Below are positions 1,435 to 61,871 of a stretch of 64,000 bases of DNA, in pieces (the stretch's first letter is position 1; each line of letters opens with the position of its first letter). The notes below the pieces were generated by a model. It saw only the letters and a program-made list of their open reading frames with translations. It did not search any database and had not been told where the DNA came from. The stretch lies in the sequence record PZ445444.1. One strand, written 5' to 3'. This DNA is from a phage. The translations under genes and the position numbers were made by a program.

Positions 1435-1860
1435 ATGATCTATGAAATGCCAAAACTGATTCGTGACGATGCCCAAAACGCCCACACCTTTATCATGGGC
1501 AAGCGCATGGATATTATTTGTCATAAAGATTTCTGGGAAGGTAGTTACTTCACAGAATATTTTGGTAAACTGGATAATGGTCTGCTGATCCAGTTCTACA
1601 CCGATGCGGAAAACAATATCTGCTGGGAGTTCGAAACTGAAGATATCCATAAACTTTTCACCTTCCTAGGTATTAAGGTTGAGGCCAAGTTTGAAGAAGG
1701 CGAGTGCGACGATTGTGGATTCTACGAGGTAACAGATTTCTATCTCCCAAGTGGTGAGAACCTTTACTATGAAAGCCACTTCGGCAACTCAAATATGCCA
1801 CAAGGTTGGGATGAGTTTTTTGAAATTGCGGAAGAGGAGCTGACATACCGTGATTATTGA
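1435..1860 (+). CDS. hypothetical protein
   Basis: 141-aa ORF, GGAG RBS; stop overlaps next start. Confidence 0.6.
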   Translation: MIYEMPKLIRDDAQNAHTFIMGKRMDIICHKDFWEGSYFTEYFGKLDNGLLIQFYTDAENNICWEFETEDIHKLFTFLGIKVEAKFEEGECDDCGFYEVTDFYLPSGENLYYESHFGNSNMPQGWDEFFEIAEEELTYRDY

Positions 1861-2308
1861 TACTGTAGCGGGAGATTTAATCTCCCTTTTTAAGAGCGGT
1901 GCTGGTCACCTGATCCACGGTTGTAACTGCTTTCATACAATGGGTGCAGGCATAGCGAAAGATATTGCCCGTGAGTTCCCTCAAGCACTGGCAGCCGACA
2001 AAGAGACTGCCTATGGTAATCTGGACAAGCTGGGTATGTTTTCTTGTTGGGAGCATTTTGCCAAGAACAGGGTCGTATATGGAATCAACCTGTATACCCA
2101 GTTCTACCCAGGGCCCAATGCTGAATACTTCTCAATAATGAAAGGTTTTGAGCGAGTCAACGAGGTATTCAAAGGTGTGTCATTGCCGTTCTACATTCCT
2201 AAAATTGGATGCGGTATTGGCGGTCTAAAGTGGGAACATGTAGAAGATGTAATTAATCTTGCAACCACAGATATTGATGTGGTTGTAGTAGAGTACAAAA
2301 AGTGTTGA
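1850..2308 (+). CDS. macrodomain protein, TARG1/OARD1/DarG-like ADP-ribosyl hydrolase
   Basis: 152-aa ORF (GTG start overlapping upstream stop); motifs GDL...HGCNCFHTMGAGIA...FP and IPKIGCGIGGLKWEHV match my recollection of human TARG1 (GDLF...HCISEDCRMGAGIA, PRIGCGLDRLQWENV) and the same length. Confidence 0.7.
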   Translation: MIIDTVAGDLISLFKSGAGHLIHGCNCFHTMGAGIAKDIAREFPQALAADKETAYGNLDKLGMFSCWEHFAKNRVVYGINLYTQFYPGPNAEYFSIMKGFERVNEVFKGVSLPFYIPKIGCGIGGLKWEHVEDVINLATTDIDVVVVEYKKC

Positions 2309-52042: not shown

Positions 52043-53326
52043 TCATTCCAGAACCTCCCAAGTGTCTGGGTTAACATTTCGGACGCAGATACCGACAGGG
52101 AATTGGTAGTTGTTGTCTTCTGTCCTTGCTTGATATTTGAAGGTGACAAACTTGCCGATCATTTCCTGCATCCTGTCATAGCTACGCTCCTCGTGCGTGC
52201 CTTTCATCTTCATTTTAACAACAACACCTTCCTTGTCAACACAGATAAGAACACCTTCATCATTCTTATCTTTCTCAACGTCAATAACTTTCACCTCTGC
52301 GTCGTTGAACTTTTTCCATTTCAATGCTTCAGATGTTCGCTGACCATACTCATATTTACCGCAGAAGTTACGCATAATGGTACCTTCATATCCTTCAGAC
52401 ATAAATATACCAACAGACTCTTCGCACCGATCAACCGTATATGCAAGCTCTGCATCAACAACCTTAATATGATCAAGCATCAAAGAAGTAATAGCACCGT
52501 TTGCCTCCATAAGATCCTTACAGCGACCAGACTCTGTTTCAGGATCCCACCACACCTTATCGCTAGGGATATCGAAAATATGATACTCTAGGTCGTAGCT
52601 GCAGTACCCTCCGTAACGCAAATCATCACGAACAGGATCAACATCAACAGGAATATCCATCTTGTTGAAGTTTTTGTATGTTGCTAAACCTGCCTTAATC
52701 GCAGCCTGACGGCGTTTTTTATCTGCCTCGTAGTCTTTATCGATCTCGGCCTGAATTTCTTCCTGTGTGCGCCACCGTTTAGCAAGAGACACTATTTTCT
52801 GCAGAGGCAGACCATGAATATAGAGCTCTCCGTCGAGCTGTTTAATCCCGGTGGTTAGGTGGAAAGAGCGAAGTTGCTCCAGAAGCTTTCCTTGAATAGG
52901 GTAGGATTTATTACCACGGGAAATAAATTTAGGCTCACCATTCTGGAAAACAACAAGTAGACGAAGGCCATCTAACTTACGCAAGATCCAGCAAGGTAAT
53001 TTAAGTGCCTTGCCACGCTTCAGGTAGTCATGCACTAACATTGGTAAAAGATCAACACCTTGCTCACAATCTTCCATACTCTCCACGTACCCTAGTCGGA
53101 CCTGTTTTTCCCACTTACTGATCGCTTCCAGCTCGGCCTGTTGCTCAGCTGTAGTCTCATTGGCGCGACCCACGTTCTTAGGTGTGCAGATCGTCTCTTT
53201 GTATTGCAGTTTACCATCAAGCTTGCCAAACTCTACGATAACCTTATCACCATCCGTGAATACTTTCCACTGTTGGTAGCTGCCATCTTTGTTCAGTGCG
53301 TACAGTGTTGTTTTGATTTGATGCAT
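52043..53326 (-). CDS. ATP-dependent DNA ligase
   Basis: 427 aa; motif I KLDGLR, LDGELYIHG (cf. T7 ligase LDGELMVKG as I recall it), EGYEGTIMR, LKWKKF. Confidence 0.75.
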   Translation of the reverse strand: MHQIKTTLYALNKDGSYQQWKVFTDGDKVIVEFGKLDGKLQYKETICTPKNVGRANETTAEQQAELEAISKWEKQVRLGYVESMEDCEQGVDLLPMLVHDYLKRGKALKLPCWILRKLDGLRLLVVFQNGEPKFISRGNKSYPIQGKLLEQLRSFHLTTGIKQLDGELYIHGLPLQKIVSLAKRWRTQEEIQAEIDKDYEADKKRRQAAIKAGLATYKNFNKMDIPVDVDPVRDDLRYGGYCSYDLEYHIFDIPSDKVWWDPETESGRCKDLMEANGAITSLMLDHIKVVDAELAYTVDRCEESVGIFMSEGYEGTIMRNFCGKYEYGQRTSEALKWKKFNDAEVKVIDVEKDKNDEGVLICVDKEGVVVKMKMKGTHEERSYDRMQEMIGKFVTFKYQARTEDNNYQFPVGICVRNVNPDTWEVLE

Positions 53327-53595
53327 TACTCTACCTCTTCCTTAAAAATTTTAAACATCTCTTCTTTACTCATTACCAACCAGTCCCCCATAAAATCAAC
53401 AAGCCAATCACCCTGGTGCAAGACTAGGTTACCAAACGGCTCTACAAGCTCACACATACGACGAAGATCTCTGGTCCGAACAGGTGACGATGTAAACACA
53501 CCTGTATCAATCCACCGTTGCAGATCAGATACTGATGAAGAGCTTCCGTCAAACTGGTGTGCTTCTACAGGTTTAGCAAGATTAAATAACGGCAT
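53326..53595 (-). CDS. hypothetical protein
   Basis: 89-aa ORF. Confidence 0.5.
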   Translation of the reverse strand: MPLFNLAKPVEAHQFDGSSSSVSDLQRWIDTGVFTSSPVRTRDLRRMCELVEPFGNLVLHQGDWLVDFMGDWLVMSKEEMFKIFKEEVE

Positions 53596-53920
53596 TGCAG
53601 TCCTCCTTATCTAATAGGTCTTTTATCGGGTAAACAAGCAGATGTGGATCGTAATAATTTATAGTTTTATTCTGCCACACTATGAACTTAATTACAACTA
53701 AATTTACCACATCTTTATCTCCATGTAGTCCAACACACAGATTTGTCCATATTTTGTGGTTGAATACTTTGCTGTCGATGTAGATCTTAGTGTCAAACTT
53801 ATCCTCTATCCTGCCTATGAGTTTAACCAACTCTTTCATCTGATCCCCAAACACAGCATCGTTTTCAAGATCTCTAGAGTGCTTGTACATAACTATCTGC
53901 CTCACTTGCATACTTTCCAC
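53582..53920 (-). CDS. hypothetical protein
   Basis: 112-aa ORF. Confidence 0.5.
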   Translation of the reverse strand: MESMQVRQIVMYKHSRDLENDAVFGDQMKELVKLIGRIEDKFDTKIYIDSKVFNHKIWTNLCVGLHGDKDVVNLVVIKFIVWQNKTINYYDPHLLVYPIKDLLDKEDCNAVI

Positions 53921-53953
53921 AACAAGTAAAGCCGGGTAATCCCGGCTATGTTG

Positions 53954-54667
53954 TTAAATATACTCTGTTACATCCTTGAAGCTCGAAGGCTTCATGATCT
54001 TACCTTTACTGTCAAGGAATATGATAACTTTATTACCGTTGTAGAATTCTTCCTTAGCAACAAAACCTTCATATCGACCATCAAAGCGTCGCTCAAGATC
54101 TTTAATCTCCAACTCGATGAGTTGTTCAGCAGGCATATCTGCACTGGCACCGTGTGAATACCGTAGATGGTTGACCCGTGCAAACTTGCTGTCATTCGAT
54201 TTGAGAACCTTACGCATCATCCCGCACACATCGCCGCGAAGCTGGAACAGCAAAGCTGTTGACAACTCTGCTAAGCGGTAAGCGGATGCTCTTTGCCTAG
54301 AGGTGTTTTTCGCAGCGATCAGTGTATCATAGAACTCACCGATCTTGAACTTAAGACCTCGTGGATTATCAAACAGGTTTGACCACTTTTCGTGATTGTC
54401 ATTAACAAGATAAGCGGCATAACTTGTGACAACGTGAAGATCGCAGGCCTCTTTTAGCAGGTGATCTCCACCATCCCCTTTTTCCAGCTCTTCCAAAACT
54501 TCATTGAACTCTTCCTCAATGAAGCTAAGCTGTAATTCGAACGGTGTGTATGATTTTTTCACTTTAGCTGCCACACGGTTCCAGTTTTCCACCCAGTTGG
54601 CAGACCAAAGGTAGTTTTCAGGTTGGGACAGTTTTTCCAGGTTGTCAATTAATTTAGTATTCAGCAT
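53954..54667 (-). CDS. hypothetical protein, possibly MazG-like NTP pyrophosphohydrolase domain
   Basis: 237 aa; E-rich helix IEEEFNEVLEELEKGD...LLKEACDLHVV; weak. Confidence 0.3.
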   Translation of the reverse strand: MLNTKLIDNLEKLSQPENYLWSANWVENWNRVAAKVKKSYTPFELQLSFIEEEFNEVLEELEKGDGGDHLLKEACDLHVVTSYAAYLVNDNHEKWSNLFDNPRGLKFKIGEFYDTLIAAKNTSRQRASAYRLAELSTALLFQLRGDVCGMMRKVLKSNDSKFARVNHLRYSHGASADMPAEQLIELEIKDLERRFDGRYEGFVAKEEFYNGNKVIIFLDSKGKIMKPSSFKDVTEYI

Positions 54668-54680
54668 TAAAGGTCTCCTT

Positions 54681-55442
54681 TTAAAGTTCCATAAAGTTTT
54701 CTACGGTCTCAATGAATGTTTTATCAGAGAAGGCATCAACCGCACCGTTAAACCAAACTGGGATGCCGCGATCCTCATACTGGTAAATATCACTACGTGA
54801 AATGCCATTCTCCTCTAGATGCTGTGAGTCGTATTTATTAACGATCAGTAGTTTGGTTCCCTTATTGCAGGCAGGGAATAGCTCCCAGTTAAAATTGATA
54901 ACTGTGTTGGAACACCCTACAAGGATAACCATATCATTGCTTGTAAGAGAAGTCAACAGGTCATACATGTCTGTATACTTCGGAGCTACTTCTCCGAAGA
55001 ACACCACATTAGGTTTAACCCAGGTATACTTTCCTGCATCTACCTCAGAGTATCCAATGTCCTTAATGACGTCACTTCCTTCATCGTCCTCATAGACTAT
55101 TTCTGGCAAATACCCGTGAACATGTAAAATATCTTCATGTTTTACACCCGCACGCTCCAGCAAATCATCTACATTGGTGGTAAGGTTGATCACACGACCA
55201 GACCAGCGGGAATACCACTCAGCGATCCGAAGATGTGCAAGGTTAGGCTCAACACCGCCTAGAGCTACACGACGTGCATTGTAAAAGTCATGCACCTTGT
55301 AGTAGTTCTTGGCAAAGGTGTGGATGTTGCACACCTCATCGATGCTGAAATTCTCCCACATTGCAGTGCTACCAGATCGGAAAGTGGGAATACCAGATTC
55401 AGCGCTCAAACCAGCACCGGAGATAATAATCAGTCGTCGCAT
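54681..55442 (-). CDS. Sir2-family NAD-dependent deacylase / ADP-ribosyltransferase-like
   Basis: 253 aa; GAGLSAESGIPTFR NAD-binding motif, catalytic HG. Confidence 0.8.
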   Translation of the reverse strand: MRRLIIISGAGLSAESGIPTFRSGSTAMWENFSIDEVCNIHTFAKNYYKVHDFYNARRVALGGVEPNLAHLRIAEWYSRWSGRVINLTTNVDDLLERAGVKHEDILHVHGYLPEIVYEDDEGSDVIKDIGYSEVDAGKYTWVKPNVVFFGEVAPKYTDMYDLLTSLTSNDMVILVGCSNTVINFNWELFPACNKGTKLLIVNKYDSQHLEENGISRSDIYQYEDRGIPVWFNGAVDAFSDKTFIETVENFMEL

Positions 55443-55450
55443 AAGTGTCC

Positions 55451-55801
55451 TCAGTAGATGTTTTGTTTAATCTCTATTCCAAACTTTTTAAACGAGTCAG
55501 CTGCAAGCATGAATTTACGAGCCGCTGATGGGTTAGAAGTATGCACGAAAATCTTCACGTTGTCAACTACAGGGGGCTTACCAAATACAAATTTTTCCTC
55601 CAACATAGATAGGCAATCGTACCCTTCGAACACCTCTCCAAGGTCGTTGTCCATGTGCCACTCAGAAACGCGTCTGTAGAGCTTTCCCCTATCGTTAATA
55701 AAATCTATAAACTCGGAGGAATTCTTTAGCCAAATAGCGTCTGGGAGCCCATAATTTGACGGATCTCTCAAGTCATCCAGCCACACAATCAACTTCTTCA
55801 T
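55451..55801 (-). CDS. hypothetical protein
   Basis: 116-aa ORF between Sir2 and RNA ligase. Confidence 0.5.
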   Translation of the reverse strand: MKKLIVWLDDLRDPSNYGLPDAIWLKNSSEFIDFINDRGKLYRRVSEWHMDNDLGEVFEGYDCLSMLEEKFVFGKPPVVDNVKIFVHTSNPSAARKFMLAADSFKKFGIEIKQNIY

Positions 55802-56712
55802 TGCATATAGTTCTCGTTGTGGAAATAGTAATCAAGTATCTCACGGCGTTCCTGCTCCAGGAGGCAGTTCCACACATCTTCTGTGTAATTGTTACTAATG
55901 AAGTTTACCATGCCGTAAAACTCTTCGTCAACACGTTTAAAGATATCATCATCCCAAATCTTCCAAGCTTTACCCCTCATTACGGCCTTCCGTGCCAGGT
56001 AGTATGGAGACTTGATCTTCAGCTGCAGGTCATAAGGGTAGTAAGGCTTACGGATCATATACCCTTCGCCCCTTGTTTCTGCGGCTAATTCTTTTGCATA
56101 GCTGAACGGGATTTCACGCACAGTGTGAGGACGTTTTGCACCAAGGTATTTGGCAATCCCATCTAAAGCTGCTTCTGGTAGCATTATTCCAGAATCATTA
56201 TATCTGCAACCTATCAAATATGCGCCATGGTCTTCTTGAACAATATGCGGATCTGAAGGGTGACAAATTTCAAACATGAATGTCATGTTTTCATTGCCCA
56301 TAACCTTCTTGATAAGATCTAAATTACCACATTGCTCTTGGATGGTTTCCTTTGCAAGGTTACAATATGGAGAATCAAGAGACCCGGTTGTTGAGAACAA
56401 TAGGTCACCTTTATGAGATGATACCACACCAAGGAATCCGTTCTTTTTCTCTACCGCAGTCACAAGCTTATTGTCAGGCAGGTTGGTGGAGTTTTCTCCC
56501 AAGTTAAACACTTTTGTGAAGGGCCATGCCACAACATTTCCTTCATTACCTACAACAATGCCTCGGCACTCCAGTAAACGAGGGGACAAATGCCATAAAT
56601 TGTTGTAAAATACTTTTCTAGCATATTTATAGATCTTTAACCCGAGATCTGGGTAATACCTACTGGTTACAAGACCTTTGTCAACTAGGTCGTCTGCATT
56701 AAAATACTTCAT
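55798..56712 (-). CDS. RNA ligase-like nucleotidyltransferase
   Basis: about 304 aa from ATG with GAGG RBS (track start 56733 also possible); motif I-like KKNGF, motif IV EGYMIRK, motif V LKIKSP. Confidence 0.65.
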   Translation of the reverse strand: MKYFNADDLVDKGLVTSRYYPDLGLKIYKYARKVFYNNLWHLSPRLLECRGIVVGNEGNVVAWPFTKVFNLGENSTNLPDNKLVTAVEKKNGFLGVVSSHKGDLLFSTTGSLDSPYCNLAKETIQEQCGNLDLIKKVMGNENMTFMFEICHPSDPHIVQEDHGAYLIGCRYNDSGIMLPEAALDGIAKYLGAKRPHTVREIPFSYAKELAAETRGEGYMIRKPYYPYDLQLKIKSPYYLARKAVMRGKAWKIWDDDIFKRVDEEFYGMVNFISNNYTEDVWNCLLEQERREILDYYFHNENYMQ

Positions 56713-56776
56713 TATATGTTCCTCATTTATCATTTTGTCAGTCTATCCTGCCACACAAATAACCTAGTGTCAACAC

Positions 56777-56805
56777 TTGAAATTAACAAAACAGTTAGGT
56801 ATACT
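56777..56805 (+). promoter_or_regulatory. sigma70-like promoter in divergent intergenic region
   Basis: TTGAAA, 17 nt, TATACT upstream of the kinase gene. Confidence 0.45.
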
Positions 56806-56833
56806 ACCGTTGAAATTAAAACGGAGGGTCACT

Positions 56834-57244
56834 ATGTCTAAAATGCTATATATCGTGCGTGGTCTACCAGGGTCTGGCAAATCAACACTGGCAAATGCGC
56901 TATCTTTAGAGGGTCTGTATCCACATTTTGAGAACGACATGTTCTGGTATGACGATGACGGCAATTACAACTGGGATGCAAGTAAAGTAACACTCGCAGC
57001 AAAATGGTGCAAAGATAACGTAGAAGATATGATGCGTATGGGATACGACCGTATCGTGGTAAGTAATACGTTTACAAAAGAAAAACATGTGCAGGAATAT
57101 GTTGACATGGCAATCAGTCATGGGTATAGTTATACCGTGATCGTGGTTGAAAACCGCCACGGTAATAAAAGCATTCATGATGTTCCAGACAAGGTTGTGG
57201 ATCGTATGGAACGCCAGCTTAAAAACTGCATTAAACTTAAATGA
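56834..57244 (+). CDS. P-loop kinase (polynucleotide-kinase-like)
   Basis: 136 aa from ATG with GGAGGG RBS; Walker A GLPGSGKST near N-terminus. Confidence 0.65.
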   Translation: MSKMLYIVRGLPGSGKSTLANALSLEGLYPHFENDMFWYDDDGNYNWDASKVTLAAKWCKDNVEDMMRMGYDRIVVSNTFTKEKHVQEYVDMAISHGYSYTVIVVENRHGNKSIHDVPDKVVDRMERQLKNCIKLK

Positions 57245-57251
57245 GGAATGT

Positions 57252-57806
57252 ATGAAATACTTTGTAACAAGCGACACACACTTTCTCCACCAGCGGGTCA
57301 TGGAGTTTGATTCATGTCAAAAACACAGATCTCAGTATGATCACAATCTTGACAGTATGAATGCGGGAATCATCGCCGAGTGGAACTCTGTTGTGTCACC
57401 TGCAGACACTGTGTTCCACTTGGGAGATATTGCGTGCACTAATGATAAGAATATCAACAACTTACTTCCAGATATTCTAAATATGTTGAACGGACATATT
57501 ATTCTTGTTCGTGGCAACCATGACACAAGGACGACTGTCAGAATTATGAAAGAGTTCGGTCATGAGGTTGTAGATTATTACGAGCTTCGCCACAACAAGA
57601 ATTTGATCTGTATGAGCCATTACCAGTTTGCAAAGTGGAACAGAAAGCCTCACGGATCAGTCCAACTGTTCGGTCATGCTCACGGAACCACACAACAGTT
57701 GTTTGGCAGGCAGCTTGATGTCGGTTGGGATGTGTGGGGGAGACTCTTACCATTAGAAGAGGCATACCGTATTGCAATGAGTTTTGATATTGACAGCAGG
57801 GAGTAA
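57252..57806 (+). CDS. calcineurin-like metallophosphoesterase
   Basis: 184 aa from ATG with GAGGAA RBS; motifs SDTHF, GDIA, GNHD. Confidence 0.75.
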   Translation: MKYFVTSDTHFLHQRVMEFDSCQKHRSQYDHNLDSMNAGIIAEWNSVVSPADTVFHLGDIACTNDKNINNLLPDILNMLNGHIILVRGNHDTRTTVRIMKEFGHEVVDYYELRHNKNLICMSHYQFAKWNRKPHGSVQLFGHAHGTTQQLFGRQLDVGWDVWGRLLPLEEAYRIAMSFDIDSRE

Positions 57807-57853: not shown

Positions 57854-58204
57854 ATGAAAGATGGGGATAAGCTGCTATATCTTAAAGTCCCCCTTGAAAT
57901 ACTATCTATGTCAAAAGTTTTGAATGACACAACTGGGGAGGTTGTTGTTCTTGACTTGTATGACAAGATCGTATACTGCTACCTGCACAACTGGTATAAG
58001 CTTGGAGGAAATTCACGCTTCACACCAAGCACAAGGAAAATTGCAGCAGATGTTGGGATAAAGAAAACAAAAGCAGCAGCGTGCGTTAAAACTTTAGAAT
58101 GTGCAGGAGTGGTTGAAACATCCACACAAGGGAGAGGTAAAAGATGCACATTTTCCAAAGTTTTGCCACCAGAAGAAGTTATTCGGATGTCAACAACTGG
58201 TTAG
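57854..58204 (+). CDS. hypothetical protein, possible HTH DNA-binding
   Basis: 116 aa; helix-turn-helix-like segment STRKIAADVGIKKTKAAACVKTLECAGVV. Confidence 0.5.
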   Translation: MKDGDKLLYLKVPLEILSMSKVLNDTTGEVVVLDLYDKIVYCYLHNWYKLGGNSRFTPSTRKIAADVGIKKTKAAACVKTLECAGVVETSTQGRGKRCTFSKVLPPEEVIRMSTTG

Positions 58205-58278
58205 ACCAGTAAAAACTTAAATATCTGTACTATAAGGATTCGTATGTTTTATGTTCGTCATGGAACGGATACTATTAA

Positions 58279-58361
58279 CTGTCCGTGATACGGACACTAC
58301 TGTCCGTCACGCGGACACATCTGCCCGTAATACGGACACTAACTGTCCGTGATACGGACAC
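58279..58361 (+). repeat. four tandem ~21-bp repeats, each an inverted repeat TGTCCGT-nnn-ACGGACA
   Basis: CTGTCCGTGATACGGACACT / ACTGTCCGTCACGCGGACACAT / CTGCCCGTAATACGGACACT / CTGTCCGTGATACGGACAC. Confidence 0.7.
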
Positions 58362-58494
58362 ATAAAGAATATAACTAAAATAACTAAATAATAAAAAATA
58401 AAAGATCTAGTACTTATGGTACTAAGTACATATACTTAACTTATGTAGAATATACTAGATCCTAAGTACCATGTTTTAAATTTATTACTTACTA

Positions 58495-58745
58495 TGGGCA
58501 GTGTCGGCCCTTCATTGGCACTCGCCTACGAGGGGCGAGATGCCGGGCCTCCTTGGTGCACACAATAACAGAAGTTCATACATGCAGGTCTGTTAACATG
58601 TGTGGGAGCGAAGCGATAGCGCAGGCCAAAGGCCGAGCACTGATGTGGACCACCGACGAAAGCTTGCCAGCGCCGTAAGGAGTCGGTTGAGAGTCTCCCG
58701 CGCGAGCTTGGATGAAGTTTATGTGTGGAAACTGACAAGAAGGCC
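58495..58745 (+). ncRNA. GC-rich structured non-coding island (unassigned candidate RNA)
   Basis: local GC well above the window average; nested complementary stems such as GGCACTCGCC/GGCGAGATGCC; the only ORF here (minus, 70 aa) has a non-protein-like translation. Confidence 0.3.
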
Positions 58746-58864
58746 CCTAAATCGCTCCACAGCTATATAAACTATACCAGGTAATGCAATCGCACCAGTT
58801 TGATAGAAAAGCTCGTTACAAAGCGATACAGTGAGTTTTTCTATAACTTGAAGAGGAGGCAGCT

Positions 58865-59443
58865 ATGGGTTCACGCAAAGATGACCGTGAAAAGATTGCA
58901 AAACGTTATCAGAATGAAGAACAGATGGAGAAAACTTTCAAGTGGAAGCCCGGTTTCCAGCGTAATCATTCTAACGCTCGTGATCGTAAGCATCCGGATA
59001 AGTGGCTAACACCGCCAAATGATGGCATGCAGGTTGGGGATGAGAAGGAGATGTCGCCTGGAAAAGATGGCAACTACATTCGCACTAAGGACGCTGGTCC
59101 AAAGGATGACAGCTATCTTGTAGATAAGGTTCTTGATGGTATCAATGTAGATGTTGACACTGCACGAAACCTTTTTCTTGGGTGGTATCGCACAGGTTTT
59201 TTCGACATCAAGGCTATTCGTCGTGTTTGTGATATTAAAAAGTCTGCCTATGATGATGACTCTCTACATCGCACTCTGAGACAATACTCAGAGAGATACG
59301 GTCATCCAGTTATCACTCTTGACGATATTAACGAAGTGATGTATCATGCAGAGGTTGTTGCAGGTAGATTCGGTGATGCATATCTCGGTATTCTTTCTGC
59401 AAAAGATGAGGTAATGTTAAATAAAGTTTACTATGAACGCTGA
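58865..59443 (+). CDS. hypothetical protein
   Basis: 192-aa ORF, GAGGAGG RBS. Confidence 0.6.
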   Translation: MGSRKDDREKIAKRYQNEEQMEKTFKWKPGFQRNHSNARDRKHPDKWLTPPNDGMQVGDEKEMSPGKDGNYIRTKDAGPKDDSYLVDKVLDGINVDVDTARNLFLGWYRTGFFDIKAIRRVCDIKKSAYDDDSLHRTLRQYSERYGHPVITLDDINEVMYHAEVVAGRFGDAYLGILSAKDEVMLNKVYYER

Positions 59444-59453
59444 GGAGCGCTTA

Positions 59454-59642
59454 ATGAACAACCCGGTAGCAAAGAACTGTAATAAGTTCAACAAGTCTGC
59501 AATTCACACTGACAGGAAAAAGAGCTGGTCTCCTGACATTGACGAGGAGCTTGAGAGTTACTTTGAAGACCTGGTCACTAATGCAGATGAGGTTGCGATT
59601 AAAGAATACGCAGACAGGAAGGATAAGGCCGGAATCTGTTGA
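59454..59642 (+). CDS. hypothetical protein
   Basis: 62 aa from ATG with GAGGAG RBS. Confidence 0.45.
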   Translation: MNNPVAKNCNKFNKSAIHTDRKKSWSPDIDEELESYFEDLVTNADEVAIKEYADRKDKAGIC

Positions 59643-59718
59643 CAAAAATAGTGTTACCTGATAAGATCTGCAATATGATGTGATGCAATTTTAACTTACG
59701 AGGTCTACAGGTAATGCC

Positions 59719-59961
59719 ATGTTTAAGGTCAAGCTCGTTTTTCGTTCCATGAATGAGGATTATTTAGAAGATGAAGGTGAATTTCGTGCACTGGATGATG
59801 CAATAGATTTTGCCAACGACTTAGCTTGTATGAATACAGGTTATGGGCTATGTTGTTGGGATGGTGGTGTTCAGATCGGTGATAGCAAGATCTTCTACTT
59901 CTACCCTGAGCCTGATAACAAACAAATTAAGTATGTTTTATTTATTTGTGCTTTACAATGA
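59719..59961 (+). CDS. hypothetical protein
   Basis: 80-aa ORF. Confidence 0.45.
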   Translation: MFKVKLVFRSMNEDYLEDEGEFRALDDAIDFANDLACMNTGYGLCCWDGGVQIGDSKIFYFYPEPDNKQIKYVLFICALQ

Positions 59962-60019
59962 GGTTGTTTTCGTGTATCATGATGAATATCCAATTTAAAG
60001 ATGAATTTGATGGCTTTAT

Positions 60020-60250
60020 CTCTGGATGCTTTGAAACAGGGTTCGGAGAAGACTGAGTTCCCCTTAGAGGGCTTGATAGTGCACCACACTTAAAATGGTA
60101 GGGGCAGCCAGCACATGACGATGTGACCCCAGCCAACCTGTAACAAGGTCGAGCCGAAGCGCGGGTAATAGGCCTCTGGTAACCCACTTGTTGGGTCTTG
60201 CTGGTCCAGGACGCTGGACAAGTCGCAGGGAACACCACCCTGCGGCGAAC
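60020..60250 (+). ncRNA. GC-rich structured non-coding island (unassigned candidate RNA)
   Basis: GC-rich non-coding stretch upstream of promoter 60251-60279; overlapping minus ORF translation is low-complexity. Confidence 0.3.
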
Positions 60251-60279
60251 TTGACAATCAGTATTTGCTATGATAAAAT
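60251..60279 (+). promoter_or_regulatory. sigma70-like promoter
   Basis: TTGACA, 17 nt, TAAAAT upstream of ORF 60308. Confidence 0.5.
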
Positions 60280-60307
60280 CCACCTATCACGTGATAATGG
60301 AGGAAAC

Positions 60308-60646
60308 ATGGCGGATACAACTAAAAAGCGTCGCCGTAGAGGCAGACCTCTGAAAGAGGAGTCCAACGCCATTCAGCTAGAGAAGAACATCCTTGATATG
60401 AAGGAATCTTTTATAGCGATGGTTCCAGAAGCTCACAAAGTTTTAAGAGAGCTGATGTTGGACCCGAAAACCAAACAAAATATTCGTCAAAGCATTGCAG
60501 AGTATGTTCTTGATAAGGCAGACCGAATGCAGGAAGAATATGATGAGATGTTTGGTGAAGAGGAAGAGGTGGTAGTAGAAGAGGCTGAAAAACCAGCACC
60601 TTTTATGCCATTCACCACAGAAATACAGCCTGTTGGCAATAGTTAA
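60308..60646 (+). CDS. hypothetical protein with basic N-terminus and acidic C-terminus
   Basis: 112 aa from ATG with GGAGG RBS; N-terminal KKRRRRGRPLK. Confidence 0.55.
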   Translation: MADTTKKRRRRGRPLKEESNAIQLEKNILDMKESFIAMVPEAHKVLRELMLDPKTKQNIRQSIAEYVLDKADRMQEEYDEMFGEEEEVVVEEAEKPAPFMPFTTEIQPVGNS

Positions 60647-60742
60647 AATATTTTCTTGACAAACTTTGCTTAACAGTGTAATATTGTAAACATGGTCTCC
60701 CACCTTTTCTGGCGGCTAAGGTGTAAAAGAAAGCCACCCAGT

Positions 60743-60817
60743 GCCCTGTTAGCTTAGTGGATAAAGCAGCGGCCTTCTAAGCCGTTGACACTGGTTCGAG
60801 TCCAGTACGGGGTGCCA
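60743..60817 (+). tRNA. tRNA-Arg (anticodon TCT)
   Basis: hand-folded cloverleaf: 7-bp acceptor GCCCTGT/ACGGGGT, D stem GCTT/AAGC, anticodon loop CTTCTAA, T loop TTCGAGT, encoded CCA. Confidence 0.75.
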
Positions 60818-60821
60818 AATT

Positions 60822-60908
60822 GGGGAGTTATCCCGTAGAGGTAGCGGTGTAGACTGTAAATCTATTGTCATTGCGACTCGGGTGGTTCGACTCCACCACT
60901 CCCCACCA
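60822..60908 (+). tRNA. tRNA-Tyr (anticodon GTA), long variable arm
   Basis: acceptor GGGGAGT/ACTCCCC, anticodon stem-loop GTAGA-CTGTAAA-TCTAT, T arm GGTGG-TTCGACT-CCACC, CCA. Confidence 0.7.
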
Positions 60909-61022
60909 AATTTATATTTTTAGATGCATAAATAATACAGATAATGGCATTGATATTTATCGTCGTTTATACTAGTCACTAACTGCTCGAAAATCAGTGT
61001 CATTATCAGTATAATTTATAAA

Positions 61023-61113
61023 GGAGGGTAGGGAGCAATGGTGCTCAAGCGGTCTTGAAAACCGTCCCGTTGAGGATGACTCGATGATGGTTCGATTCCA
61101 TTACTCTCCGCCA
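61023..61113 (+). tRNA. tRNA-Ser (anticodon TGA), type II
   Basis: acceptor GGAGGGT/ACTCTCC, anticodon loop CTTGAAA, long variable arm, T loop TTCGATT, CCA. Confidence 0.6.
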
Positions 61114-61211
61114 CATTGTTGACCTTGTAATTAAGCGAAAGCCGGAAGCAGAACCGGATTATCAAATGTTACAGTCGTCATCGCCGACTAGCAACATGGT
61201 CAACATACTGA

Positions 61212-61310
61212 GCTAGGTAAGCCCTTTGGCAAGGGCGAGGATTTTTAATCCTGAAAATAGACGAGGTAGTCGTTGAATACATAGGTGGTTCGATTCCATC
61301 ACCTAGCACC
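61212..61310 (+). tRNA. tRNA-like gene, atypical (99 nt; anticodon loop TTTTTAA suggests TTT/Lys; ~28-nt variable region)
   Basis: acceptor GCTAGGT/ACCTAGC, D arm GCCC-TTTGGCAA-GGGC, 4-bp anticodon stem AGGA/TCCT, T arm GGTGG-TTCGATT-CCATC; CCA not fully encoded. Confidence 0.4.
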
Positions 61311-61315
61311 TTTTT

Positions 61316-61391
61316 GCTGATGTAGCACAATCGGTAGTGCAATTGATTTGTAATCAATAGGTTGTAGGTTCAAGTCCTGCCATCAGCACCA
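61316..61391 (+). tRNA. tRNA-Thr (anticodon TGT)
   Basis: acceptor GCTGATG/CATCAGC, D stem GCAC/GTGC, anticodon arm ATTGA-TTTGTAA-TCAAT, T loop TTCAAGT, CCA. Confidence 0.8.
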
Positions 61392-61392
61392 A

Positions 61393-61467
61393 GGCCCTGT
61401 AGCTGGAAGGTTCAAGCAAGCGACTCATAATCGCCAGACGGTGGTTCAATTCCACCCAGGGCCACCA
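61393..61467 (+). tRNA. tRNA-Met (anticodon CAT; initiator, elongator or Ile-lysidine type not resolved)
   Basis: acceptor GGCCCTG/CAGGGCC, anticodon loop CTCATAA, T arm GGTGG-TTCAATT-CCACC, CCA. Confidence 0.75.
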
Positions 61468-61478
61468 AATAATAAATA

Positions 61479-61555
61479 CTCCGCGTAGCTCAGCTTGGTA
61501 GAGCGCCTGATTTGGGATCAGGAGGTCGAGTGTTCGAATCACTCCGTGGAGACCA
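61479..61555 (+). tRNA. tRNA-Pro (anticodon TGG)
   Basis: acceptor CTCCGCG/CGTGGAG, D arm TAGCTCAGCTTGGTAGAGC, anticodon arm CCTGA-TTTGGGA-TCAGG, T arm GAGTG-TTCGAAT-CACTC, CCA. Confidence 0.8.
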
Positions 61556-61601
61556 CTTTCAGTTATACTTTAAACATATACAAACAAAAGGAACCTTTAA
61601 A

Positions 61602-61871
61602 ATGTATACACTTAAAATTGTAGAGCGTGTAAATACAACCTATACCGTAGATTTTCGTGACGATTTCAATCCTCTGGCTGTAAATCTTCGAGAGTCATAT
61701 CATGAACTCAGCTGCGATGCAGTGGTGGTCTTTTTTGAAGACAACTCTGAAGGGGCAGTAGCTTGTGTTGTTGATAGTGAGCAGAAGTTTTATATTTACA
61801 GAGATGTAGATGCATACTTGATGAATGAAAATGCAGTTACTGTTAGAATCATCCACCGAGTGCCTCGATAA
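61602..61871 (+). CDS. hypothetical protein
   Basis: 89 aa from ATG downstream of tRNA-Pro (the track start at 61512 lies inside the tRNA). Confidence 0.5.
   Translation: MYTLKIVERVNTTYTVDFRDDFNPLAVNLRESYHELSCDAVVVFFEDNSEGAVACVVDSEQKFYIYRDVDAYLMNENAVTVRIIHRVPR

Follow-up and report, generated by a model that had tools for sequence, protein, structure and literature searches.

Cleavage of tRNAs is a common bacterial strategy against phages, and repair of the broken RNA is among the few known phage answers to it. The only phage RNA-repair system characterised experimentally is the Pnkp/Rnl1 pair of phage T4, a counter to PrrC, in which the kinase is fused to a HAD-type (DxDxT) 3'-phosphatase and the ligase Rnl1 carries a C-terminal domain that gives tRNA specificity (PMC11404444). 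The bacterial Pnkp enzymes that partner Hen1, such as Clostridium thermocellum Pnkp and Capnocytophaga Pnkp1, hold a Pnk-type kinase, a binuclear metallophosphoesterase and an adenylyltransferase ligase in one polypeptide. In fungi and plants, Trl1 (ligase-kinase-CPD) acts with Tpt1, Cpd1 and Poa1: the break is sealed with a 2'-phosphate, the phosphate is removed with NAD+, and the ADP-ribose cyclic phosphate is cleared. Closest to the present case is a computational prediction by Iyer, Burroughs, Anantharaman & Aravind (2022, Viruses 14:1977, PMC9503650), who described a type 2 sirtuin-centred NAD+-utilising RNA-repair neighbourhood with Escherichia phage V5 as its prototype, and suggested for the sirtuin a KptA/Tpt1-like role in taking off RNA 2'-phosphates. 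Here we analyse a cassette of six genes, packed into 3.9 kb at positions 53954-57806 of a 64,000-nucleotide stretch of phage DNA from record PZ445444.1 (the window), which encodes a predicted RNA ligase, polynucleotide kinase, phosphoesterase, sirtuin, receiver-type domain protein and pyrophosphohydrolase.

Sequence comparison places the window in Vequintavirus, as an rV5-like E. coli phage. Over ~4 kb around the cassette, the best match is Escherichia phage PMBT16 (99.9% identity), and 121 phage records, several of them in the BASEL collection, are 90-99% identical to the cassette region; the related records with retrieved taxonomy belong to Vequintavirus (rV5-like myoviruses, Vequintavirinae). 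The cassette is the same system as that of Iyer et al., from the same genus and with nothing substantive that differs: their neighbourhood likewise combines a sirtuin, a T4-like tRNA ligase, a cyclic-phosphate-processing receiver (cREC) domain, a nucleotide kinase, a pyrophosphatase of the MazG superfamily and a calcineurin-like phosphoesterase. It is already known, and an earlier note on this DNA, which could match the configuration to no described phage system, was wrong in this respect. The genes also carry names in related GenBank records: RNA ligase, polynucleotide kinase, phosphoesterase, Sir2 deacetylase, 'cyclic-phosphate processing domain-containing protein' (in OR062943) and nucleotide pyrophosphohydrolase. 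The six open reading frames (ORFs) listed in that note are present at the same coordinates, and their family assignments hold in profile or structure searches. We consider it likely that this rV5-like E. coli phage carries here an RNA repair system of the heal-and-seal kind, split over separate genes, and probably uses it as a kit to mend tRNAs cut by host defences. With the T4 pair the cassette shares the three chemical activities, the Rnl1 motifs and a Pnk-clade kinase with a catalytic Asp. The prediction being published, the value of the present analysis lies in confirmation and sharper testable details rather than in discovery; new here are the widespread core of ligase, kinase and phosphoesterase (the triad), the missing C-terminal domain and the Trl1-like His of the ligase, and a sirtuin without its zinc module.

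The ligase gene (55798-56712, minus strand) encodes 304 amino acids (aa) from an ATG at 56712. Its longest ORF extends to 56733; the start is most likely at 56712, because of a GAGGA site and agreement with the N-termini of homologues, and residue numbers below refer to the 311-aa form. The protein matches Pfam PF09511 (RNA_lig_T4_1; 55.4 bits against a cut-off of 28.3, E = 1e-14), and its best PHROG is phrog_562, 'RNA ligase and tail fiber protein attachment catalyst'. Single-sequence PDB searches with the ligase, the kinase and the MazG-like protein were uninformative, and family profiles were required. A profile built from 21 ligase homologues, 41-49% identical to the window protein, matched T4 Rnl1 (2C5U) at 5.5e-13, spanning the entire nucleotidyltransferase domain with motifs I, III, IV and V aligned. 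R57, K74, K96 and G99 (motif I, KxNG), E155, E223-G224, K239 and K241 are invariant in 80 of 80 related viral loci, and F76 is conserved across them except for Tyr in six. These positions align with T4 Rnl1 residues that are essential in the mutagenesis of the Shuman laboratory, K96/G99, E155, E223-G224 and K239/K241 with K99/G102, E159, E227/G228 and K240/K242. An AlphaFold (AF2) model of the ligase has a predicted local distance difference test (pLDDT) score of 90.3. Its top Foldseek neighbours are all RNA ligases, with Rnl3, fungal Trl1-LIG and T4 Rnl1 near 1e-11 and Rnl5 and Rnl2 types also found; the fungal LIG domains score as high as T4 Rnl1. DNA ligases rank far lower, the African swine fever virus ligase first at 2e-4 and cellular ones at 1e-2 or worse. 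Sequence and model together identify the protein as an Rnl1-family ATP-dependent RNA ligase with an adenylatable lysine and all nucleotidyltransferase motifs, and the earlier call of an RNA rather than a DNA ligase is upheld by the Pfam match, the T4 Rnl1 profile match, the invariant motif I and Foldseek.

The ligase is not an equivalog of T4 RnlA (NCBIfam TIGR02308; 38.5 bits against a cut-off of 242). The alignment of the family to 2C5U ends at residue 249 of 375, the protein has 304-311 aa against 374 aa, and ~65 residues follow motif V in place of ~130 in T4 Rnl1. These lengths indicate that the cassette ligase is without the C-terminal tRNA-specificity domain of T4 Rnl1; the C-terminal region of Trl1 is also longer than its own.

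The kinase is a stand-alone P-loop polynucleotide 5'-kinase-like protein of the Pnk clade (56834-57244, plus strand, 136 aa). It matches AAA_33 at 1e-10 and phrog_505 'polynucleotide kinase' at 4.7e-10. When a profile of the 23-member family was searched against the PDB, the best full-length relatives were Pnkp1 (4XRP, 2.1e-7), PSTK (3ADB, 2.2e-7), T4 Pnk (1LY1/1LTQ, 2.4e-7), CthPnk (4GP7, 2.5e-6) and mammalian PNKP (3.4e-5); nucleotide kinases matched over the P-loop only. The P-loop GxPGSGKST and D35 are invariant in the family, and D35 aligns with the Asp of T4 Pnk 'NRDDY', the general base. Gene context points the same way. A phmmer survey found ~10 metagenomic viral loci in which the kinase forms the N-terminal half and the ligase the C-terminal half of a single ~430-aa ORF, and both AAA_33 and RNA_lig_T4_1 were confirmed by Pfam in three of the four fusion ORFs checked. 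In a reciprocal survey of 80 kinase-anchored loci (neighbours within 6 kb), some RNA ligase was present in 42: an Rnl1-type ligase in 28, and in 19 an RNA ligase from another family (PF09414, together with a PHA02142 OB domain), which Pfam confirmed directly downstream of the kinase in all four cases checked. Beside this kinase, one type of RNA ligase has taken the place of another. Since the kinase keeps to RNA ligases of two families that are unrelated, and forms fusions with one of these, it is predicted to be a polynucleotide kinase in all but biochemical proof. The point on which the earlier note might have failed, a nucleotide kinase in its place, is answered in its favour by its grouping with polynucleotide and tRNA kinases and by the ligase fusions in other viral contigs.

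Several side observations came from these surveys. The fusion loci (L045:6527-7822, L049:1338-2615 and L055:6530-7822; also L037, L038, L042, L046, L051, L052, L056 and L112) have no phosphoesterase homologue within 7 kb in the ligase-anchored survey. Examples of the loci with a PF09414-type ligase, 19 in all, are L099:6393-7526, L105:6502-7629, L106:6412-7557 and L133:6384-7517. Recurring proteins of ~428 aa and ~348 aa stand beside kinase-phosphoesterase pairs (L084:7031-8314, L087:3252-4295 and relatives, six loci each); they have no Pfam match and may be unrecognised partners of the end-healing module.

The third member of the triad, a calcineurin-type metallophosphoesterase of the aq_1665 family (57252-57806, plus strand), matches Metallophos_2 and Metallophos in Pfam and phrog_547 at 1.5e-51. 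The motifs D8xH10, G58-D59, G88-N89-H90, H123 and G141-H142-x-H144 are invariant in 24 homologues, in line with the earlier description of the phosphatase as calcineurin-type rather than HAD-like. Unlike T4 Pnkp, the cassette has its kinase and phosphatase in separate genes, and unlike bacterial Pnkp it spreads the three activities over three genes, with an Rnl1-type ligase and a phosphoesterase that is not lambda-phosphatase-like. By family profile, the nearest solved structure is the uncharacterised Aquifex aq_1665 (1XM7, 2.4e-24). The clade with known activity on RNA 3' ends (2',3'-cyclic phosphodiesterase) is that of lambda phosphatase and CthPnkp. As the family is aq_1665 and not that clade, the role of the protein in 3'-end healing rests on context, and we presume it to be the 3'-end healing enzyme. 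A weak match to NCBIfam PdeM ('ligase-associated DNA damage response') was also seen (2.6e-4, 20.5 bits against a cut-off of 150).

Cassettes of the rV5 type are widespread, with 1,679 ligase homologues found by protein search. To place the cassette among its relatives, we surveyed 80 related viral loci for neighbours of the ligase within 7 kb. A phosphoesterase was present in 62 of the 80, mostly adjacent and on the same strand; this enzyme is optional in the neighbourhood of Iyer et al. and is a regular core member here. The full triad occurred in 57 of the 80 loci, and the genes for sirtuin, cREC and pyrophosphatase went with the ligase in only 10-13. By this count, ligase, kinase and phosphoesterase form a widespread core and the sirtuin module a clade-restricted part.

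For the core we propose the following route. Metal-independent host ribonucleases (anticodon nucleases, HEPN and colicin-type enzymes) leave RNA ends with a 2',3'-cyclic phosphate and a 5'-OH. The metallophosphoesterase would process the cyclic-phosphate end, the Pnk-like kinase would phosphorylate the 5'-OH, and the ligase would adenylate itself on the motif-I lysine and seal the break. We regard these healing and sealing steps as very probable; their substrates and order are read from gene context.

The remaining three genes lie on the minus strand with the ligase. The sirtuin (Sir2; 54681-55442) matches PF02146 (95.3 bits against 24, 5.5e-27) and phrog_2162 (3e-109), and aligns with E. coli CobB (1S5P) at 4e-21, with HVHG opposite HMHG. 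GAGxSxESG, FR, TTNVDD, H108-G109, GCS and N201 are invariant. The four cysteines that bind zinc in canonical protein deacylases are absent (in none of 11 homologues is a Cys conserved between H108 and W140), and NCBIfam CobB-type models score far under cut-off (for example 122 against 243). Its residues indicate a sirtuin that keeps the NAD+ site and the catalytic His and has lost the zinc module. PADLOC gave no defence-system match for the sirtuin and weak P-loop matches only for the other cassette proteins. We rejected a defence-type Sir2 NADase on this ground and because NAD+ depletion would damage the phage.

The small ORF at 55451-55801 had been recorded as unknown in the earlier note, whose Sir2 and MazG-like calls next to it stand; it encodes a cREC domain (PF20274; 55.1 bits against a cut-off of 27, 1.3e-14). 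D8, D9, D50-N51-D52, S88 and K95 show no variation and T87 almost none, and they give a receiver-type acidic pocket. The domain was defined in 2021 by the group of Iyer et al. (2022) and is reported only in RNA-repair or cyclic ADP-ribose-phosphate contexts. Because this ORF proves to be a cREC domain, the suggestion of the same note that an NAD/ADP-ribose-linked step takes part in RNA end processing, a reasonable one, is strengthened.

The MazG-like protein (53954-54667) stayed under threshold for PF01503 (13.6 bits against 21.3) and had no match in Pfam, PDB single-sequence and NCBIfam searches. An EExxE...D metal-binding signature and a helical fold are present, followed by a conserved C-terminal extension (SNDSK...GRY.G...GKIMKP). 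From signature and fold we assign it as an all-alpha nucleoside triphosphate (NTP) pyrophosphohydrolase of the MazG/HisE superfamily with a dimeric-dUTPase-like fold. No member of the Tpt1/KptA family was matched among the six cassette ORFs.

In the accessory branch as proposed by Iyer et al. (2022), sirtuin, cREC and pyrophosphatase would act in an NAD+-dependent path that opens the end to 3'-OH/2'-PO4 and retains the 2'-phosphate during sealing. If the branch is real, it shares the logic of the fungal and plant pathway with unrelated folds: a sirtuin for Tpt1, cREC or the metallophosphoesterase for 2H phosphodiesterases, and the pyrophosphatase or a macrodomain for Poa1. The ligase offers a point of contact. 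H163, beside motif III, is invariant and stands opposite His193 of yeast Trl1 (hhalign probability 86.6%, E 4.5e-6), where T4 Rnl1 has Ile; the Trl1 sequence used has K114, E184, H193, E266, K284, K286, R295 and R298 at their published numbers. In Trl1 this His193, and in CthLIG the corresponding His227, binds the 2'-phosphate and makes the enzyme specific for it (PMC11404444), and the alignment of H163 with this residue favours the NAD+ branch. K249 and R253 are also invariant, 8 and 12 residues past the second motif-V lysine, and the fungal Arg pair lies at +9 and +12. The linkage of the sirtuin module to the ligase also outlives rearrangement, since several related phage contigs of ~146-148 kb have the gene order Rnl-cREC-Kin-Sir2.

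The strongest competitor keeps the triad and dispenses with the branch. On this account the triad repairs RNA as in T4, with the cyclic phosphate fully removed and no 2'-phosphate made, and sirtuin, cREC and pyrophosphatase are unrelated neighbours that act on NAD+/ADP-ribose immune signals, host proteins or the nucleotide pool, in a cluster of early or counter-defence genes. Several points weigh against the repair system in its full, NAD+-dependent form. In 44 of the 57 triad loci the sirtuin, cREC and pyrophosphatase are missing; the triad thus seems able to work by itself, and repair along T4-like lines, with no 2'-phosphate at any stage, is just as possible. Loci with the sirtuin module come mainly from ~140-150 kb contigs with the same flanking DNA-ligase block as the window and look like related large phages, so that the linkage may only mirror shared ancestry. 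The pyrophosphatase is structurally closest to dimeric dUTPases and may be a simple nucleotide-pool enzyme, and its gene is not adjacent to that of the sirtuin in related phages. The nearest solved relatives of the sirtuin are the protein deacylases CobB and SIRT5. Within the ligase, the hhalign alignment ends before motif V, and K249/R253 were matched to Trl1 Arg295/Arg298 by eye only; H163, K249 and R253 are invariant with or without a sirtuin and so do not tie the ligase to it. Two further points bear on the cassette as a whole. The phosphoesterase profile matched neither lambda phosphatase nor the CthPnkp phosphatase at E <=0.1 in the PDB, and literature searched on phage sirtuins in RNA repair and on Vequintavirinae versus anticodon nucleases held no biochemical or genetic test of cassette proteins. 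In BASEL screens Vequintavirinae are restricted by the retrons Eco2 (TOPRIM, nicks tRNA acceptor stems) and Kva2 (HEPN, cuts tRNA and rRNA), and the cassette is therefore not a universal antidote.

NAD+ genes adjoin the triad in a second form. In at least seven other lineages it is directly followed by a phosphoribosyl pyrophosphate (PRPP)-synthetase-like gene and then a Nampt/NAPRTase-like gene, an arrangement shared with NARP1 (Adps and Namat), a pathway that reconstitutes NAD+. That RNA-repair and NAD+ genes are neighbours in two forms fits an NAD+-consuming repair step or plain clustering of NAD-related counter-defence, the latter being what the T4-like account would lead one to expect. 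Such an account sits less easily with the restriction of reported cREC domains to RNA-repair or cyclic ADP-ribose-phosphate contexts, with the position of cREC between the ligase and kinase genes in related phages, with the loss of the zinc module of canonical sirtuins, with the Trl1-like His of the ligase, and with the PADLOC models, which were unmatched apart from the weak P-loop matches. We give the T4-like account a sizeable minority chance. The NAD+ branch, inferred as a whole, we put forward tentatively, and it is unlikely, though worth stating, that the rV5-type ligase resembles the tRNA ligases of fungi and plants in needing a 2'-phosphate at the junction or leaving one there.

Were that last proposal true, the cassette would be a complete bacterial-virus counterpart, built from unrelated folds, of the eukaryal Trl1-Tpt1-Cpd1-Poa1 pathway, and the zinc-less sirtuin would be the first of its family with known activity on an RNA 2'-phosphate. 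Host KptA would carry out the 2'-phosphate step in the many phages that have the triad only, and E. coli KptA would gain a physiological source of 2'-phosphate RNA. The cassette occurs in easily handled BASEL E. coli phages and allows a direct test of whether the sirtuin is an RNA 2'-phosphotransferase and of what cREC does.

The repair reading of the triad itself has three further competitors. The kinase and phosphoesterase could heal DNA, preparing 5'-OH/3'-phosphate ends for the phage DNA ligase at 52043-53326. T4 Pnkp works on both DNA and RNA, 33 of 82 ligase-anchored loci include a homologue of DNA ligase within 7 kb, and the phosphoesterase has its weak PdeM match. That score is far under cut-off, however, the kinase is fused to an RNA ligase and not to a DNA ligase, and where the Rnl1-type enzyme is missing it is a second RNA ligase family that substitutes; DNA end healing is improbable as the function of the pair. 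Housekeeping is just as improbable; here the enzymes would serve the phage's own RNAs, in the maturation or recycling of its transcripts or its seven tRNAs, and would not counter host nucleases. The tRNA cluster is only 2.9 kb off and includes an odd 97-nt tRNA-like gene, but a search of 58200-61800 detected neither an intron-bearing tRNA nor a self-cleaving RNA, and the precedent for a phage Rnl1 with Pnk is counter-defence against PrrC. T4 gp63 has a second activity, in which it catalyses tail-fibre attachment; that this is the main task of the ligase homologue is very improbable, since the phrog_562 annotation behind this idea, copied in several GenBank records, inherits its name from gp63, every catalytic residue of the ligase is invariant, and the gene sits among nucleic-acid enzymes and not structural genes.

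The layout of the split-gene repair cassette is that of two divergent units. On the minus strand the ligase, cREC, Sir2 and MazG-like genes are tightly packed, with a ligase/cREC overlap of 4 bases. A GC-rich hairpin, AGCCGGG-ATTA-CCCGGCT (53930-53947), terminator-like on both strands, lies just beyond the MazG-like stop codon and is the probable 3' boundary of the minus-strand unit. A divergent intergenic region of ~120 bases (56713-56833) separates the two units; it holds, upstream of the kinase gene, a sigma-70-like site, TTGAAA-17-TATACT at 56777-56805 (plus strand), which is a consensus match only, and a ribosome-binding site GGAGG stands before the gene.

The flanks of the cassette hold further genes. 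The ORF directly after the phosphoesterase gene (57854-58204, plus strand) encodes a helix-turn-helix protein (phrog_12838 'replication initiation protein', 5e-80) that is named a transcriptional regulator in a BASEL record and might regulate the divergent unit. Beyond the minus-strand end, two small conserved ORFs (phrog_7684 and phrog_14585; 53326-53920, minus strand) lie between the cassette and the ATP-dependent DNA ligase (52043-53326, minus strand), which is 0.6 kb past that end; the DNA ligase and both ORFs accompany the cassette in related large phages.

The loci with the PRPP-synthetase/Nampt-type pair are L011, L017, L027, L028, L031, L035 and L047 (e.g. L027:3817-6266 and L035:2621-4803). 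NARP1 homologues were not found in the window by tblastn. We also considered whether the NARP1-associated 'phage phosphatase' (Osterman et al. 2026) is the metallophosphoesterase of the cassette, and rejected this, as that protein is a Poa1-like macrodomain instead. Poa1-like macrodomains are ADP-ribose-1''-phosphate phosphatases in phage NARP1-AP operons (bioRxiv 10.64898/2026.01.28.702374). A macrodomain ORF in the window (1850-2305, plus strand) gives a borderline match to Pfam Macro, 25.9 bits against 22 over the first 32 profile positions only. The earlier note had linked it to the cassette; with a borderline match and 52 kb between them, the link is weak.

The tRNA cluster (60743-61555, plus strand), whose start is 2.9 kb downstream of the phosphoesterase gene, contains seven tRNA genes: Arg-TCT, Tyr-GTA, Ser-TGA, Lys-UUU-like, Thr-TGT, Met/Ile-CAT and Pro-TGG. 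The Lys-UUU-like member is the 97-nt gene (61212-61308, plus strand), which scores 35.5 bits with the Rfam tRNA model against a gathering score of 29, is reported as '???' with a 4-base anticodon by ARAGORN, and is named tRNA-Lys in phage JeffSchatz. Its predicted fold has a 7-bp acceptor stem, a 6-bp D stem, a UUU anticodon loop and a long extra arm (z-score -3.7). PrrC and PARIS both target tRNA-Lys(UUU), so this gene could supply a nuclease-resistant substitute.

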